A program made the position numbers and the translations under genes. This document shows positions 51,466 through 58,105 of a stretch of 64,000 bases of DNA, one piece after another; positions within the stretch are counted from its first letter, which is position 1, and the number at the start of each line of letters is the position of its first letter. The stretch comes from SAR202 cluster bacterium (lineage in GTDB: Bacteria; Chloroflexota; Dehalococcoidia; Lucifugimonadales; VGZR01). The notes beneath the pieces were generated by a model, which saw only the letters and a program-made list of their open reading frames with translations, did not search any database and was not told the DNA's origin. The stretch lies in contig VGZR01000001.1 of NCBI GenBank assembly GCA_016872515.1, forward strand, positions 167,322-231,321. Direction: 5' to 3'.

Positions 51466-53163
51466 CTACAGCGGTTGGGCGGCGGAGCCTTTCCAGCGTG
51501 CGATGGCGGCCTCGGCACGGGGGCTGCGTGCCCGCTGCACTTCGACGTTGACGACCGCAGGACGGTTGAGATGGAAGGCGCGTTCGAGGGCGCCGGGGAG
51601 GTCTTCGGGGGACTGGATGTTCTCGCCGTGGGCGCCGAGGCCCTTTGCGACGATGTCGTAGCGGCTGGGGAGGAGGTCGGAGGCGGTGGTGCGGCCGTAG
51701 ATGCCAAGCTGGATCTGGCGGTCTATGCCCCAGGCGGAGTCGTTGCCGACGAGGGCGACGATGGGGAGGCTGTGACGGACGGCGGTGTCCATCTCCATAG
51801 CATGGAAGCCGAAGGCGCCGTCGCCGGTGACGAGGACGGTGCGGTGTTCGGGCCGGGCGAGCTTTGCGGCGAGGGCGGTGCCCATGGACTGGCCGAGCAT
51901 GCCGAAGGGGGAGAAGTACCACCAGCGGCGGGGGCCGCGTGCGGGGAGGGCGGCGCGGCCGAAGTGGCAGAAGTCGCCGCCGTCGAAGACGAGGGTGTCT
52001 TCGGGCGAGAGCATGGGAGCGAGGGTCTTGAAGACCCAGGCGGCATGCATGGGGGTCTCGGGCTTTGCGAGAGCATCGAACCACTCGGCTTGGGCCTGGC
52101 GCTCGGCCTTGAGGCGCTGGAGCCAGGGCTTGCGGGCGGGCCATGCGCGTTCGGCGGCCTCAGCCTGGAGCTGGTCGAGGGCGGCGGCGATGTCGGCGGC
52201 CATGCCGACGGCGACAGCGCGGTTGCGGCCTATCTCGGCAGGCGAGGGGTCAACCTGGATGAGCTTGGCGTCGCTGTGGATGGCGGGGTGCGCGGCGTAG
52301 CCGAGGATGAGGTCGTGCTTGCGGCCGAGGAGGAGGACGGTGTCGGCCTCTTTGAGCAGGCGGGCGGCGCGGTTGAGGCCGGCGTCGTAGAAGCCCATGC
52401 AGAGGGGGTGATCGTCGGCGACGAGGCCGCGGGCGTCGGCCTCGGTGAGGAGCGGGGTCTGGGTGGTCTCGATGAAGCGCTGGAGGGAGGCGCCGCCGTC
52501 GAAGTAGGCGGCGGGGCTGCCCGCGATAATGAGTGGGCGCTCGGCCTTGTGAAGCAGTTCGACGGCTTGCCGCACCCGCTCGACGGGCGCGGGGGTGGGC
52601 AGGAGGCTGGCGTGGACACTGCCATCGAGGAAGGCGACCTCGTCTTCGGCGATAACCTGCTCCTGGATGTCCACGGGGACGGTGAGGTGGACGGGGCCGC
52701 GACGGCCCGTGTAGGCGGTGCGAAGGGCGAGGGCGACGGCGTCGGGGATGTGGCGGGCGTCGGTGACCATCCAGGCGCCCTTGGTGACGGGCTTGGCCAT
52801 GCCGACCTGGTCAATCTCCTGCATGGCGCCCCGGCCCAGCTCGGAGAGGGGGGCGCAGCCGCTGATGGAGAGGACGGGGCTTTCGGAGTGGAGCGCGGTG
52901 GCGAGGCCGGGGATGGCGTTGGCGAAGCCGGGGGTGGTGTAGCTAGCGACGCCGGGCTGTCCGGTGATGCGGCCCCAGACGTCGGCCATGTGGACGGCGG
53001 TGGCCTCTTGGCGGACGTCAATCAGGCGGATATCGAGGCCGTTGAGGGCGTCGAGGAGGGGCAGGTTGTGGTCGCCGACGAGGGTGAAGAGGTAGCGCAC
53101 GCCTTCCTGCAACAGCACCCTGGCGAGGATGTGGCTTCCGGTGGTCTTGGCGGTCTTGGGCAT
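51466..53163 (-). CDS. thiamine-diphosphate-dependent enzyme (acetolactate-synthase large-subunit-like)
   Basis: ATG 53163. GSHILARVLLQEGVRYLFTLVGDHNLPLLDAL. ThDP motif GDGAFGFHAMEMDTAVRHSLPIVALVGNDSAWG. Confidence 0.85.
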   Translation of the reverse strand: MPKTAKTTGSHILARVLLQEGVRYLFTLVGDHNLPLLDALNGLDIRLIDVRQEATAVHMADVWGRITGQPGVASYTTPGFANAIPGLATALHSESPVLSISGCAPLSELGRGAMQEIDQVGMAKPVTKGAWMVTDARHIPDAVALALRTAYTGRRGPVHLTVPVDIQEQVIAEDEVAFLDGSVHASLLPTPAPVERVRQAVELLHKAERPLIIAGSPAAYFDGGASLQRFIETTQTPLLTEADARGLVADDHPLCMGFYDAGLNRAARLLKEADTVLLLGRKHDLILGYAAHPAIHSDAKLIQVDPSPAEIGRNRAVAVGMAADIAAALDQLQAEAAERAWPARKPWLQRLKAERQAQAEWFDALAKPETPMHAAWVFKTLAPMLSPEDTLVFDGGDFCHFGRAALPARGPRRWWYFSPFGMLGQSMGTALAAKLARPEHRTVLVTGDGAFGFHAMEMDTAVRHSLPIVALVGNDSAWGIDRQIQLGIYGRTTASDLLPSRYDIVAKGLGAHGENIQSPEDLPGALERAFHLNRPAVVNVEVQRARSPRAEAAIARWKGSAAQPL

Positions 53164-53177
53164 GGGCCTTCTGGCGT

Positions 53178-53297
53178 TCCTCACCCTTTGACGTTCGGCG
53201 AGGCTATGCTCCACCCCCACCTCTTCAGCCCCGCTGCCAGCAGGGCTGAAGGTCCCCCCCCGCCTCAAGGGGGAGGAGGGGGAAACGCCCCACCCCC
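53178..53297. repeat. mosaic repeat cluster in the 5' leader of the ThDP-enzyme gene
   Basis: TTCCTCACCC..., then CTCCACCCCCACC-TCTTCAGCCC..GGGCTGAAGG-TCCCCCCCCGCC-TCAA-GGGGGAGGAGGGGG...CCCCACCCCC. Confidence 0.85.
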
Positions 53298-53357
53298 AAT
53301 CGCATAGGAACTTCTGCCGCGACGAGAGAGGGAACACATCAACTCCGACGCGTCCCA

Positions 53358-53385
53358 ATTGTAGGGGTGGACGGGAAGGTGTCAA
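53358..53385 (-). promoter_or_regulatory. consensus-like promoter cassette, copy 1 (drives the ThDP-enzyme gene)
   Basis: Minus strand reads TTGACA (53385-53380), 16 nt spacer, TACAAT (53363-53358). About 45 nt are shared with copy 2 at 55241-55290. Confidence 0.6.
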
Positions 53386-53435
53386 GGATGGGATGGCTGG
53401 TGGGCGATTCGCTGGCAGGCCGGAGTTTGATGATA

Positions 53436-55227
53436 CTACCTAAGGCGGTGTTTCGGTCGAGACACGCGGTAAGCGATGAACGCGGCGAAAGCCAAGCTGG
53501 GTCCGAGGAGCGCCCATGCACCCGACGTGGGAACCGGTGGTGGAGCAGGGCCCGAAGTCACAAGGAAAGAGTAGCTGTAAGTCGTCTGGTTACCAGCCTC
53601 ATCCTGTGCCATGAAGCTGAGGGTATGGCTTCCCGGTGAAAGACCGGATAAGGTGTGCCTATAGATGACGCCGTCTGTTGAGGTCAAGGCGCCTGTTATG
53701 TCGTTTCCGTCCAGGGTGACCGAGAGCGCGGTAACCGTTCCATGGGTATCGTAGTCGGTCACGACATTGCCAGGAACAGTAGTATGCACGCCAGAACTAT
53801 CTAACCCATACTCAAGCCCTTCATTGGAGAAATCCACGGTGGTGGTTGCCATACCAGCGGTAGTGGTGACCGTGAATGTTGGGGCTGGTAGGCCCGTGTC
53901 AACCTCGAAGAGGACGGCCTAGGTCAGGTCGAGCGCAGTGCTGGTGGAGATTGCGAGCCCGGCCTTGCCGATGTTGATAGCGCTATTGAGGTCAGTTGCC
54001 TGAGCATTGACGTTGTACAAGCCAGAAGCCGTTGGAGTGCTTGTGGCGAGGAAGACTTTCGGGCCCCCGGTCAGGGACAGGAACGTTGTGGACGTGGAGA
54101 AATTACGGGTGTTGTCCAAGACCTGTACTACCCCAAGAGAGACCGTACCGGAGGCAACATTCTCGTCGGCCTTCAGCCTGATGGGCACCGAGCCGTTCGT
54201 TACAGGTGCGGATGCTGGAACCTACGGCACGGGTCAGCCCTGGCGCGATGCCGTCGGTGGACGGGTCTTTCGCGTGTGGGGTGAACAACTCGTTGCCGAT
54301 GAGGTCTTTGACGATGGCGAGCGCGCCGATGCCTACCACTTCAACCTTTGGTCTTGCATCTGGGACCAGCGCTGCTACGGTGAGGAACACGGACTGGGGT
54401 CTGCCTGGAAAGTGTTCAGCCGCCGAGGGGACGACGCCCGCGACGCGGAAGTCTGTGGGGGCGACTGTAGTGCCATCTATCGCTTCGTTGAAATCAACGC
54501 GGATGCTTGTGCCCTTCGCTTTAGCGGGGTCAAACTCGGTCTTGTCATCAGTTGTCTTGGAGGTGTCCCACCACGTGCCGGTCGTCGCGGCCGCGAGAAA
54601 GGGCCCTGAACGGTCAATGACGATGGCGTGAGGTTGGCAGCCGAGCACGCTGGCGGAGTTGGACGGGACCATGCCTATGAGTGAAGTGGCCACGAACGAG
54701 ACTGCGTCGCAAGGGTTGGCAGCACCGGAGATGGTTGGCTCCCGGTCGGCGACGCCGATGTTCCCCGCGAGGTCGGTGGCCTTGAACCACCAGTACACGA
54801 TCTGGTCAGTAGTCAAAGTGGGGCCGAACCGTTGGCGGATGTTGTAGCCGTTGGTGATAGCAGTGATATCGGCGGCAGCTACATTCTCAATGGTTACCTG
54901 GTCGATGTCGCCGTCAAAATCTACATCTCGGCCCCACAGCACCGTGATGTTGGAGCTGTAAATGCCGGAGTCGATGTCTGTCATGTCGGCCTGCACCGTG
55001 GGTTGAAGTACAGTGGAGCGGGTGTTGTGGGCCGGGCTGAAGTTGGAGATAGTTGGCGCCAACGTCTCAGCAGCGAAGACCTCGTGGGAGATTAATGGTG
55101 CGGTGGCAACAATGAGAACACCAACAAGAGATCCAAGAAGTCCCAGGCGCTCGCTTCTATGCGACGGGCCATGCGCGCGAGGGGCGCGGATGCGCCATCC
55201 ACCTTTGGAGGCGGTTAACCTTGGCAT
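53436..55227 (-). pseudogene. cell-surface protein S2 (SbsA-type Ig-like domains, C-terminal PAPPPVP..GAWAL-TM-basic tail), disrupted by one frameshift and one in-frame TAG
   Basis: ATG 55227 with signal peptide (LGLLGSLVGVLIVATAPLISHEVFA). ORFs 54103-55350, 53919-54188 and 53436-53852 are collinear pieces. ORFs 53919-54188 and 53436-53852 share one frame separated only by TAG 53919-53921. The frame changes between 54106 and 54221. ATDLAGN and AQDEAGN motifs. Confidence 0.55.
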
Positions 55228-55250
55228 GGGACTCCCCAACCGACGCCCCA

Positions 55251-55278
55251 ATTGTAGGGATGGGCAGGGAGGTGTCAA
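55251..55278 (-). promoter_or_regulatory. consensus-like promoter cassette, copy 2 (drives surface protein S2)
   Basis: Minus strand reads TTGACA (55278-55273), 16 nt spacer, TACAAT (55256-55251). The GGGGAG SD and ATG 55227 follow about 24 nt downstream. Confidence 0.6.
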
Positions 55279-56645
55279 GGACGGGGTATACGTGTCATCC
55301 GCCGGAGGGCGAGCGTGGAAAAGAGGATGCCCAGGACAGCTAACGCCCAACTGCCGAGGAATGGCACAGGAGGGGGAGCAGGGGCAGGTAGTCCCTGCTT
55401 GTAGGTGAGGGTGAAGTGAGTGCCGTCGTTGCCGCCGAGGACGCCGTCGCCATGGTCGGTGAGGCAGCGGATGGTGATGATGCCGTTGGCGCCATCAACA
55501 CTTTCGACCTGCAAAGTAGAGGAACTGGAAATCACATCTTGGTAACTGACTACTCCATCGCTGTTTCTGTCCAGGATTGGGGGTGTGACTGGCGTGGATG
55601 AGGTGACGACCGCGCCGGTGGATGGGGTGTATCGGTCTATCCTTATACTGGAATTGGTAGAGCATTCAGCGTAGGCGTTGAGGACGATTTCTATGCTGGG
55701 AACGGGTGTGATGTTGGTGTGGGTGTTGGCGTTGCTGTTGGGCTAGCGGAAGGATTAACGAGGATAGTCGCGGTTCGAGTGATGGGAGCGGCTGAAGAGC
55801 CGTCTACGTAGGAAAGTGTCACGGCATCGACAGAGTTGACCCTGAGGTCGCCTGCTGACCAAGTGCCGTTCGCAGTTAGGGTAATGTCCGGCGGGGTCGT
55901 CGTCGTTTCGCTGATGCTGCAGAAGAACGAGGAGACGAGGCAGCGAAAGGTGCTGGTAGTGGACGCGCTTGAGTTGAGGAACACAGCGCCTCGAAACACG
56001 CCACTGTTCGCCGTCGTTTTTTCGTGACGGACAAGGACACCCGTTGGGTCTGCGTCGCTGACGACTTTGACTGAACCCAGCCCTGTGACCGCGGCTGAGG
56101 TGTCCACTACACCTTTCCGATAGCTCAAATGGATGGTGTCACCATCTGCCGTTAGGTGGTTCTTGTCGTCGGTGCCATGGGTACCGAGGCAACGGATCGT
56201 CATAACTCCATTCGTGCCATCGACCGAGAGGATGGCTAGCCCCAGGGCGGCCAAGTCCTCGGTGGCGACTACGTCGTTATGGCTAGTAATCCCATCCTCA
56301 TTTCGGTCCACGATTGGTGGGCTGACGGGGGCGCTGGAAGTTGCGAAGGACACACCGCTGGCGGTACTGGTGATGCCGGTAAACCTATCCACGGTGACGT
56401 TTTCGTTGGAGCCGCATTCGAGGTAAACGAGTATCGAGGTGTCCTCCGCTACATTCAAATCAGCGTCGGTCGCTTCGAGCACGAGTCGGCCCCCCTGCAC
56501 AGCCGCAGAAAGGGTCTGCGATGGGTCATCGGGGTTTGGGGAAGCGCAACACTGCATTGGCGCTGAACGCCGTGCGAACTGCGAAAAGCCCTAGGGCAAA
56601 GCAAGCGCTGAGCACTATGGCCAGGAGGACCGTCCGTCTGCTCAT
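55275..56645 (-). pseudogene. cell-surface protein S1 (two copies of an about 105 aa domain, same C-terminal tail as S2), disrupted by two frameshifts
   Basis: ATG 56645 with signal peptide MSRRTVLLAIVLSACFALGLFAVRTAFSANA. The frame changes within 56529-56590 and again within 55694-55742. The tail is PAPAPPPVPFLGSWALAVLGILFSTLALRRMTR. Confidence 0.5.
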
Positions 56646-56673
56646 GGTGGCCTCTCTTGGAGATGCCTGTCGG

Positions 56674-56702
56674 AGAGTACAAGGCTCAGAGGGGTACGTC
56701 AA
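56674..56702 (-). promoter_or_regulatory. promoter candidate for surface protein S1
   Basis: Minus strand reads TTGACG, 17 nt spacer, TACTCT. The -10 box ends 29 nt upstream of ATG 56645. Confidence 0.4.
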
Positions 56703-56812
56703 CTTAGACCGCAAGTCGCAATCTAGGGAGTGCCTGGGAGGCATGGATTGTGGTCGCACGGACGTGTTGGTATACTCGGCCAGCGGCGGCTGTATGGCCG
56801 TGAGGAGGGTGT

Positions 56813-58105
56813 ATGCAGAATCCTTCGATCCTTCGACAAGCTCAGGACAGGCCAAGCTCAGAACAGGCTCCAAAGGGGCCGCTTGAGGGGGTCCGGGTCG
56901 TTGACTGGACGATTTGGCAGTTCGGGCCGATCGCGGCGACGATGCTGGGCGACCTCGGGGCCGATGTCATCAAGGTGGAGGCGCTGGACGGGGATCCGGG
57001 GCGCGCGGTGTTCTCGGCAGGAGGTGTGGATAGGAGCCTGCCGGAGGGGCGGAACTCGTACTTCGAGGCGAACCACCGCAACAAGCGGTGCATCGCGCTG
57101 AACCTGAAGCACCCGGATGGCCGCGAGGTCGTCCACAAGCTGGCGAAGAACGCGGACGTGTTCATCCAGAACTTCCGGCAGGGCGTAGCGGAGCGGCTGG
57201 GGCTGGACTACGAGACGCTGCGGAAGCTGAACCCGAAGGTCATCTACGGGTCGGGGTCAGGCTACGGGCCGAAGGGGCCCGACTCGGCGTTGCCTGCGCT
57301 GGACAGCGCGGCGCAGGCGCGGAGCGGGCTGATGTATGCGACGGGGCCGGAGGGCGCGGACCCGTTCCCCATTCATGGGGCTGTGGGCGACCAGATGGGC
57401 GGCATCATCCTTTCTTGGGGCATCCTGGCGGCGCTGGCGGGGCGCTCGCTCCACGGCATCGGGCAGAAGGTGGAGGTGTCGCACCTGAGCAGCAGCATGT
57501 GGCTGCAGGGGCTGTCCATCAGCATGAGCCTGCTGACGCAGCACAAGCCGCCGTCCGAGGTGAACTTTAGCGTGAGGCAGGCGCGGCAGAAGGCGTTCAA
57601 CCCCATCTCGAACTACTACAGGTGTAGGGACGGGCGCTGGATGATGCTGGCGAACTTCGAGGCGGACCGGTACTGGGCGTCGTTCGCGCGGGCGGTGGGC
57701 ATCGGGCGTCTGGCGGACGACCCACGGTTCAAGGACACGCATGCGCGGACGGCGAACCGGGTGGAGCTCATCAGGGTGCTGGACGAGGTGTTCGCGACGA
57801 AGACGTACGCGGAGTGGGACGAAATCATGCGGACGAAGGGGGACTTCATCTTCGCGCCGGTGCAGCACATCTCGGAGCTCCCGCGCGATCCGCAGGTGTT
57901 GGCGAATGGATACATCGCGGAGGTGGAGCACCCCGTGCTGGGGAAGGCGAGGCTGACGGACCACCCGGTGCGGTACAGCGAGACGCCGCACAGCATACGC
58001 CGCGTGGCACCGGAGCTTGGGGAACACACGGAGGAGATCCTGCAGGAGCTGGGGTACGGTTGGGAGGACATCGCGTGGCTGCAGGAGGCGGGGGTGATTC
58101 TGTAG
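56813..58105 (+). CDS. family III CoA-transferase (CaiB/BaiF-like)
   Basis: GVRVVDWTIWQFGPIAATMLGDLGADVIKVE. 430 aa. GAGGAGGG SD. The first 20 or so codons lie in repeat modules. Confidence 0.85.
   Translation: MQNPSILRQAQDRPSSEQAPKGPLEGVRVVDWTIWQFGPIAATMLGDLGADVIKVEALDGDPGRAVFSAGGVDRSLPEGRNSYFEANHRNKRCIALNLKHPDGREVVHKLAKNADVFIQNFRQGVAERLGLDYETLRKLNPKVIYGSGSGYGPKGPDSALPALDSAAQARSGLMYATGPEGADPFPIHGAVGDQMGGIILSWGILAALAGRSLHGIGQKVEVSHLSSSMWLQGLSISMSLLTQHKPPSEVNFSVRQARQKAFNPISNYYRCRDGRWMMLANFEADRYWASFARAVGIGRLADDPRFKDTHARTANRVELIRVLDEVFATKTYAEWDEIMRTKGDFIFAPVQHISELPRDPQVLANGYIAEVEHPVLGKARLTDHPVRYSETPHSIRRVAPELGEHTEEILQELGYGWEDIAWLQEAGVIL
56821..56870. repeat. two E-type repeat modules inside the 5' end of the CoA-transferase ORF
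   Basis: TCCTTCGATCCTTCGACAAGCTCAGGACAGGCCAAGCTCAGAACAGGCTC. Confidence 0.7.

Follow-up and report, generated by a model that had tools for sequence, protein, structure and literature searches.

Surface-protein genes S1 and S2 and their C-terminal tails

The analyzed stretch of DNA (the window) comprises 64,000 nt of contig VGZR01000001.1 of a SAR202 cluster bacterium (assembly GCA_016872515.1). Two genes for surface proteins, S1 (55275..56646) and S2 (53436..55227), end with a candidate protein-sorting signal, which is the subject of this analysis; the features of both genes lie on the minus strand. The S1 tail (LPAPAPPPVPFLGSWALAVLGILFSTLALRRMTRIPRP plus stop codon, 55275..55391) closes an open reading frame (ORF) of 86 aa (55275-55535), and the S2 tail (GPAPPPVPTSGAWALLGPSLAFAAFIAYRVSRPKHRLR plus stop codon, 53436..53552) closes an ORF of 138 aa (53436-53852). 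In each tail, a proline-rich motif is followed by a hydrophobic segment that is about 17-18 residues long and then by a basic end. In S1, the motif PVPFLGSWAL (55341-55370) precedes the hydrophobic helix WALAVLGILFSTLAL and the basic sequence RRMTRIPRP, and in S2, the motif PVPTSGAWAL (53508-53537) precedes the helix WALLGPSLAFAAFIAY and RVSRPKHRLR. The original prediction, which had proposed a new sorting signal, described the two tails as tripartite and near-identical. The tripartite organization was found as written, but the second attribute was too strong, as the identity is 42% overall and the common part is PAPPPVPxxGxWAL, while helices and basic ends diverge.

Neither gene is intact. 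Tblastn was performed with a paralogue from the same genome (C12:32061-35081, minus strand), an intact secreted protein of 1006 aa that is collinear with S1 and S2 and has no membrane tail. S1 was found to lie in three pieces separated by two frameshifts, i.e., the signal-peptide ORF in the first frame (56526-56646), an ORF of 288 aa in the second frame (55691-56557), and a last frame that is open from 55742 to 55275 and contains another copy of a domain (about 105 aa) already present in the first part of S1. Residues 37-313 of the paralogue aligned with window positions 56539-55745, and residues 68-186 with positions 55694-55392, the second copy of a domain. S2 has its own signal peptide behind an ATG start at 55227. 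Paralogue residues 309-598 aligned with positions 55071-54208 in frame -3 and residues 596-837 with positions 54215-53505 in the next frame, -1. This frame change places a frameshift near 54190-54210, and the homology also runs across an in-frame TAG at 53919-53921. Together, the two genes carry three frameshifts and one in-frame TAG within 3.2 kb, and the genes alongside are intact. The signal peptides are encoded solely upstream of the frameshifts, and neither tail is joined to one in the sequence as it stands.

Because the homology to the paralogue persists across every break, the breaks are lesions in frames that were once continuous. They are not errors of this assembly, since the region 53300-56900 (3601 nt, including all four lesions) is 100% identical in five independent contigs from different samples and assemblers (Logan, JGI, ENA). 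The alignments are best explained by S1 and S2 being the split and decayed copy of one gene of about 1000 aa for a surface-layer (S-layer)-like protein. Relative to the paralogue, S1 would have gained the repeated domain and the tail, whereas S2 would have acquired a promoter and a signal peptide and would have a tail where the paralogue has its last ~170 residues. In the simplest reading, both are probably pseudogenes or relics, and the functional cargo would be provided by the intact carriers encoded at other loci of the genome. The G+C content is 0.59 at window positions 54001-56000 and about 0.65 in the surroundings.

Its N-terminal domain places S2 in a protein family (about 850-1200 aa) that also includes the C12 paralogue and was found in 59 of 151 genomes from the same order. 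The family is often present in several copies per genome and has almost no Pfam annotation; the C12 protein is a candidate for the S-layer protein of these cells.

Two promoter-like cassettes of near-consensus sequence (TTGACA-16-TACAAT) were read from the minus strand, one before S2 (55251..55278) and one 3' of S2, before a gene for a TPP enzyme (53358..53385; gene at 51466-53385). The TGA stop codon of S1 falls inside the -35 hexamer of the former, and therefore, the last codons of S1 come from the cassette. A recent DNA duplication of tail plus cassette was considered as the origin of the tail similarity and rejected; the DNA aligns poorly outside the motif, and the cassette offsets differ.

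Further tail carriers and the relation to IPTL-CTERM

A hidden Markov model (HMM) was built from the tails of this genome and applied to the C-terminal 60 residues of each of the 31,338 stop-to-stop ORFs in the genome (2.28 Mb). Five matches scored 57-70 bits (S2 67 bits), whereas the next best scored 12 bits; later searches added two more copies. The pattern is therefore real and specific, and not a chance similarity. In total, the genome has seven copies of the tail, namely on S1, on S2, on one subtilase/FG-GAP protein and on four FG-GAP proteins or fragments. The subtilase (C2:4738-8160) is intact, has about 1115 aa with a signal peptide, Peptidase_S8, PPC and fn3 domains and seven FG-GAP repeats, and ends with PVPSGSTWALVGLG... 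Tails ending with PVPSASFWGLAGLAG... are found on the FG-GAP protein at C9:29-526, on that at C82:2-853 (tail copy at C82:737-850), and on a fragment of an FG-GAP protein at the start of C38. The fourth FG-GAP protein, C15:48224-49660 (minus strand), has the tail PVPGASAWGLAALG...RRRK. The two of these carriers whose N-terminus is on the contig, the C2 subtilase and the C9 protein, have signal peptides. The presence of the tail on a subtilase, on FG-GAP proteins and on S1/S2 shows that it is a module of unrelated proteins and not a feature of one paralogous pair.

Two peculiarities of these carriers were observed. In the C15 protein, about 70 further residues follow the basic cluster before the stop codon, which could be due to a lost stop codon or to an insertion at the 3'-end. 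Contigs C9 and C38 break inside or beside near-identical FG-GAP tail copies, and the short contig C82 has a third one. A repeated gene family has probably collapsed in the assembly, and the number of carriers is therefore a lower bound.

Database searches pointed to a catalogued class. In Pfam, IPTL-CTERM (PF18203) was the top sorting-tail family for three of the four distinct tails of this genome (20.0, 15.2 and 19.5 bits). In NCBIfam, all four matched positions 27-67 of NF033207 ("midcut-by-XrtH") with E-values from 2e-5 to 2e-3; the S2 tail matched the XrtH-signal region of this model with 18.5 bits. Matches to TIGR04174, the second IPTL-CTERM model, were weak for the tails of this genome. 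The S1 tail reached 20.0-20.4 bits with PF18203 (curated cut-off 20.8) and 14.0 bits with TIGR04174 (curated cut-off 20.5). When tails of relatives were included, nine of ten matched PF18203, with a best E-value of 1.9e-9.

The motif agrees with this assignment in part. Pro and Trp are invariant in the tails of this genome at the spacing of IPTLxxWG, with Ile replaced by Val, Thr-Leu not kept, and Gly replaced by Ala in three of the seven. Relatives of the same order have tails such as IPSLSRWGIL, VPSLSHWGLI and IPGVTQWGLI. Among 35 non-redundant tails from the order, P-x4-W is kept in 26, and the motif reads I/V, P, S/G, L/V, S/T, x, W, G (19), A (5) or S (2), L. Judged by residue pattern, this order-wide [IV]P[SG][LV][ST]xWGL is essentially IPTLxxWG and links the window tails to the canonical motif. 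The window form VP[TF][SL]G[AS]WAL thus appears as a lineage-specific variant at the divergent edge of the signature. Both window tails end their ORFs, the C2 and C9 carriers have signal peptides, and in both S1 and S2 the hydrophobic helix is followed by the basic cluster.

Signals of other classes were not found. The tails of this genome contain no PEP motif (PF07589 at most 9 bits in Pfam) and neither LPXTG nor LAXTG. No VPXXXP-CTERM model was among their NCBIfam matches at E <= 10, and Pro is missing at +4 of the window tails. VPDSG-CTERM was matched once, weakly (11.7 bits, cut-off 22). Gly-Gly was not seen in the tails by eye; the genome has two generic rhomboid genes, which are also present in 14 of 14 control genomes, and the rhombosortase model itself was not run. 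Taken together, the assignment of the original prediction to the exosortase-type sorting signals is supported by carriers on unrelated proteins, as well as by the enzyme described below, but the claim that the signal is new does not hold, because it is a divergent form of IPTL-CTERM and the tails of relatives match PF18203 strongly.

An exosortase H-like enzyme, its membrane partner and their distribution

It had been correctly stated that the window encodes no sorting enzyme. Such a gene is present on another contig (C6:32020-32592, minus strand) and encodes a polytopic protein of 176 aa. The protein scored 88.3 bits with the exosortase H model TIGR04177 (cut-off 86), the subfamily with the highest score and the only one whose cut-off was exceeded, and 49.1 bits with the exosortase/archaeosortase signature TIGR04178 (cut-off 23). 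The scores were 72.7 bits for archaeosortase B (ArtB, TIGR04144; cut-off 150), 70.2 bits for XrtX (cut-off 170), 24 bits for archaeosortase A (TIGR04125), and 24.7 bits, below cut-off, for PF09721. Cys87, Asn125/Arg128 and His147 are invariant in alignments of 10 and of 34 homologues. No exosortase-family locus other than this one, which encodes the short form of the enzyme, was found in the genome. Most enzymes of relatives score 60-85 bits with the XrtH model. The closest public xrtH loci, retrieved with a five-sequence alignment, are all labelled as Dehalococcoidia, SAR202 cluster or Chloroflexi metagenome-assembled genomes.

The 3'-end of xrtH is overlapped by 17 nt by a gene for a multi-pass membrane protein of 186 aa (C6:31476-32048, minus strand), termed the partner. 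It directly follows xrtH in nine of the 12 loci first examined. It was found in 28 of the 151 genomes, 27 of which also have xrtH, and there the two genes adjoin. Searches of Pfam and NCBIfam gave no match for the partner, each of its 50 database relatives is either unnamed or annotated as "hypothetical protein", and it showed no profile similarity to XrtH (hhalign probability 0.7-0.8% with shallow and deeper alignments). Its position and size are those of the catalogued XrtH-associated protein NF041730, to which homology could not be shown.

The co-occurrence of tail and enzyme was quantified in the 151 genomes, with thresholds of E <= 1e-5 for the XrtH-like gene and E <= 1e-3 for the tail. 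XrtH-like genes were found in 33 genomes, tails in 25, and both in 21 (2x2 table 21/12/4/114, Fisher p = 1.2e-13). Thus, 21 of the 25 tail-positive genomes have an XrtH-like gene, compared to 12 of the 126 tail-negative genomes. Presence and absence of the two also covary inside six families (f1, f6, f16, f23, f30 and f32). In four genomes from three families (G018, G072, G061 and G129), the gene immediately upstream of xrtH carries a tail, and the partner follows xrtH. In 19 public Dehalococcoidia xrtH loci of about 12 kb each, just one nearby tail was found, and it was W-less; therefore, the cargo genes are mostly dispersed. The case in which the motif is confined to two paralogues and has no enzyme, which would have reduced it to a simple anchor, is thus contradicted by the additional carriers and by an enzyme with which the tail co-occurs.

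Two families deviate from this pattern. Members of f40 (G040, G087, G117 and G143) and f7 (G065, G102 and G130) have XrtH-like proteins of 62-80 bits and no tails by this profile, and f40 also has no partner protein. The enzymes of these families may use a different signal.

The genome also encodes a sortase (C1:60112-60543, plus strand; Pfam sortase 75.5 bits), and a candidate LAATG substrate is found at C5:68011-68769. Sortase genes are present in 126 of the 151 genomes, i.e., in 23 of the 25 tail-positive and 103 of the 126 tail-negative ones. They do not track the tails, and their presence is uninformative. One genome (G061) has seven tails and an XrtH-like gene, and no sortase.

The proposed pathway, its alternatives and known systems

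As a whole, the results are best explained by the tails being C-terminal sorting signals of the IPTL-CTERM class that belong to an XrtH-like pathway, with the window genes having decayed, and we regard this explanation as highly probable. It draws on features seen directly here: the architecture of the signal, the register of its motif, an enzyme with Cys, Arg and His, cargo of unrelated types, co-occurrence, and the adjacency of cargo, xrtH and partner. In this pathway, the N-terminal signal peptide would direct export of the cargo through Sec, after which the tail helix would hold the cargo in the membrane and the basic end would remain on the cytoplasmic side. At the outer face of the membrane, the small exosortase H-like membrane cysteine protease/transpeptidase could recognize the motif [IV]Pxxxx-W-[GA]-L. 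The enzyme would be expected to remove the helix and to hand the protein to an acceptor at the cell surface. Cleavage, the acyl-enzyme step and the acceptor are inferred by analogy to the exosortase/archaeosortase family.

Several observations weigh against this explanation. The window tails do not reach the curated cut-off of either IPTL-CTERM model, and the Pfam search gave no PF18203 match for the S2 tail. The enzyme is only 2 bits over the XrtH cut-off, which is exceeded in just four of the 151 genomes, and public names for its clade are generic ("exosortase/archaeosortase family protein", "archaeosortase B" or "hypothetical protein"). NF041730 was detected neither in the genome (E <= 10) nor among nine partner orthologues. 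Twelve genomes have an XrtH-like gene and no tail by the profile used, and four have tails and no enzyme. The link between XrtH, which we take to be the IPTLxxWG-specific exosortase according to its TIGRFAM definition, and the motif rests on this definition together with the co-occurrence measured here. We know of no experimental work on XrtH.

Some of these points would also fit an enzyme clade that is a separate exosortase subfamily of the Dehalococcoidia, not orthologous to XrtH and maybe nearer to archaeosortase B, with the tail as a sister class of IPTL-CTERM that follows the same mechanism. The narrow passing of the XrtH cut-off, the range of 60-85 bits for most relatives, the ArtB and XrtX scores not far behind, and a partner that does not match NF041730 are compatible with such a subfamily, as are the JGI label "archaeosortase B (VPXXXP-CTERM-specific)" for some relatives and a few tails of relatives that read IPGVTPWG and are compatible with VPxxxP. 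Nevertheless, XrtH is the top subfamily and the sole one over its cut-off, whereas ArtB and XrtX stay far under theirs, the NCBIfam matches of the tails at E <= 10 include no VPXXXP-CTERM model and only one weak match to VPDSG-CTERM, and the order-wide consensus is essentially IPTLxxWG and matches PF18203. We therefore consider a separate subfamily unlikely. That the tails are plain, unprocessed membrane anchors, and that S1 and S2 resemble each other by descent from a common ancestor gene, is quite improbable. S1 and S2 are indeed parts of one paralogous gene family, and processing of the tail is a prediction only, but the same succession of motif, helix and basic end is found on an S8 subtilase, on FG-GAP repeat proteins and in many genomes, whereas the intact 1006-aa paralogue has no such tail. 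Moreover, the tail tracks the exosortase gene (p = 1e-13), and the conserved residues with their fixed P-x4-W spacing lie outside of the helix.

The tails could instead be non-canonical substrates of the sortase of the genome, which is recognized by Pfam; LPXTG signals share the tripartite layout. Tails without LPXTG or LAXTG, the occurrence of sortases regardless of tails, the sortase-less genome with seven tails, and a candidate LAATG substrate of the sortase's own make this barely credible. A further alternative does not concern the enzyme but the state of S1 and S2. If the breaks were bypassed by frameshifting and stop-codon read-through, both proteins would still be made with their tails, and the persistence of paralogue homology across every break, as well as the identity of the disrupted sequence in five assemblies, could be read in this way. 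However, such identity is expected from one clonal population, four separate disruptions lie within 3.2 kb next to intact genes, and no recoding signal was seen, so that a bypass is very improbable.

Of the known systems, the IPTL-CTERM/XrtH system (PF18203, TIGR04174, TIGR04177, NF041730 and NF033207) is similar in the tripartite tail with Pro and Trp at the IPTLxxWG spacing, in a small exosortase of about 175 aa with Cys, Arg and His, in a gene for a membrane protein of about 185 aa directly downstream, and in having modules of cargo, xrtH and partner in some genomes and dispersed cargo in others. It differs in that the window motif VPxx[GS]xWAL has lost Thr-Leu, has Ala instead of Gly and scores under the curated cut-offs, in that the partner is not detectably related to NF041730, and in the host, which belongs to the Dehalococcoidia (Chloroflexota). 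The PEP-CTERM/exosortase A (XrtA, EpsH) system shares the enzyme superfamily and the tail architecture, but a PEP motif is missing here, the enzyme is of the short form, and no link to an extracellular polysaccharide (EPS) locus was seen. PGF-CTERM/archaeosortase A of Haloferax volcanii also belongs to the same enzyme superfamily, its cargo includes S-layer-type surface proteins in a cell without peptidoglycan, and the likely outcome, loss of the C-terminal helix and linkage of the protein to the membrane, would be the same. In contrast, its motif is PGF, its enzyme is larger, its host is an archaeon, and its model gave the 24 bits mentioned above. Attachment to a lipid has been demonstrated for the H. 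volcanii system and is a guess for the tails described here.

The literature search yielded one experimental mention of an IPTL-CTERM protein, mela_00855 of Methylomirabilis lanthanidiphila, an S-layer protein with an N-terminal signal peptide and a predicted IPTL-CTERM domain as its tail (PMC8671808). It is likewise a surface-layer protein; the host is a diderm and the protein is unrelated to those analyzed here. Cultured SAR202 bacteria are monoderm, have no genes for peptidoglycan synthesis and have an S-layer-like outer layer (PMC10444878). These two findings make a role in archaeosortase-like anchoring plausible. A search for exosortases or archaeosortases together with Chloroflexi or SAR202 gave no co-mention of exosortase and SAR202 among the top-ranked papers. 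By analogy, the XrtH-like enzyme and its partner might cleave the IPTL-like tail and link the cargo (S-layer-type proteins, proteases and FG-GAP adhesins) covalently to a lipid of the membrane, with the partner supplying or presenting the acceptor. Bacteria would then have an equivalent of the surface-layer anchoring that archaeosortase A performs in haloarchaea; we propose this only tentatively and rather doubt it.

The addition to existing knowledge is modest and consists of the host lineage, tails that are missed by curated cut-offs, an uncatalogued partner, and the split, decayed state of the window genes. As the curated IPTL-CTERM models miss the Dehalococcoidia tails of this genome and public records name the enzyme clade only generically, with these tails included in a seed alignment, many surface proteins could be labelled in a group that is abundant worldwide and has hardly been cultured. 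Strains of SAR202 are now in culture, and the acceptors of exosortase cargo could suitably be sought in cells of this kind, in which an exosortase system is combined with a purely proteinaceous outer layer and no peptidoglycan. Sortases are common (126/151) in this order, whose cultured relatives reportedly lack peptidoglycan synthesis.

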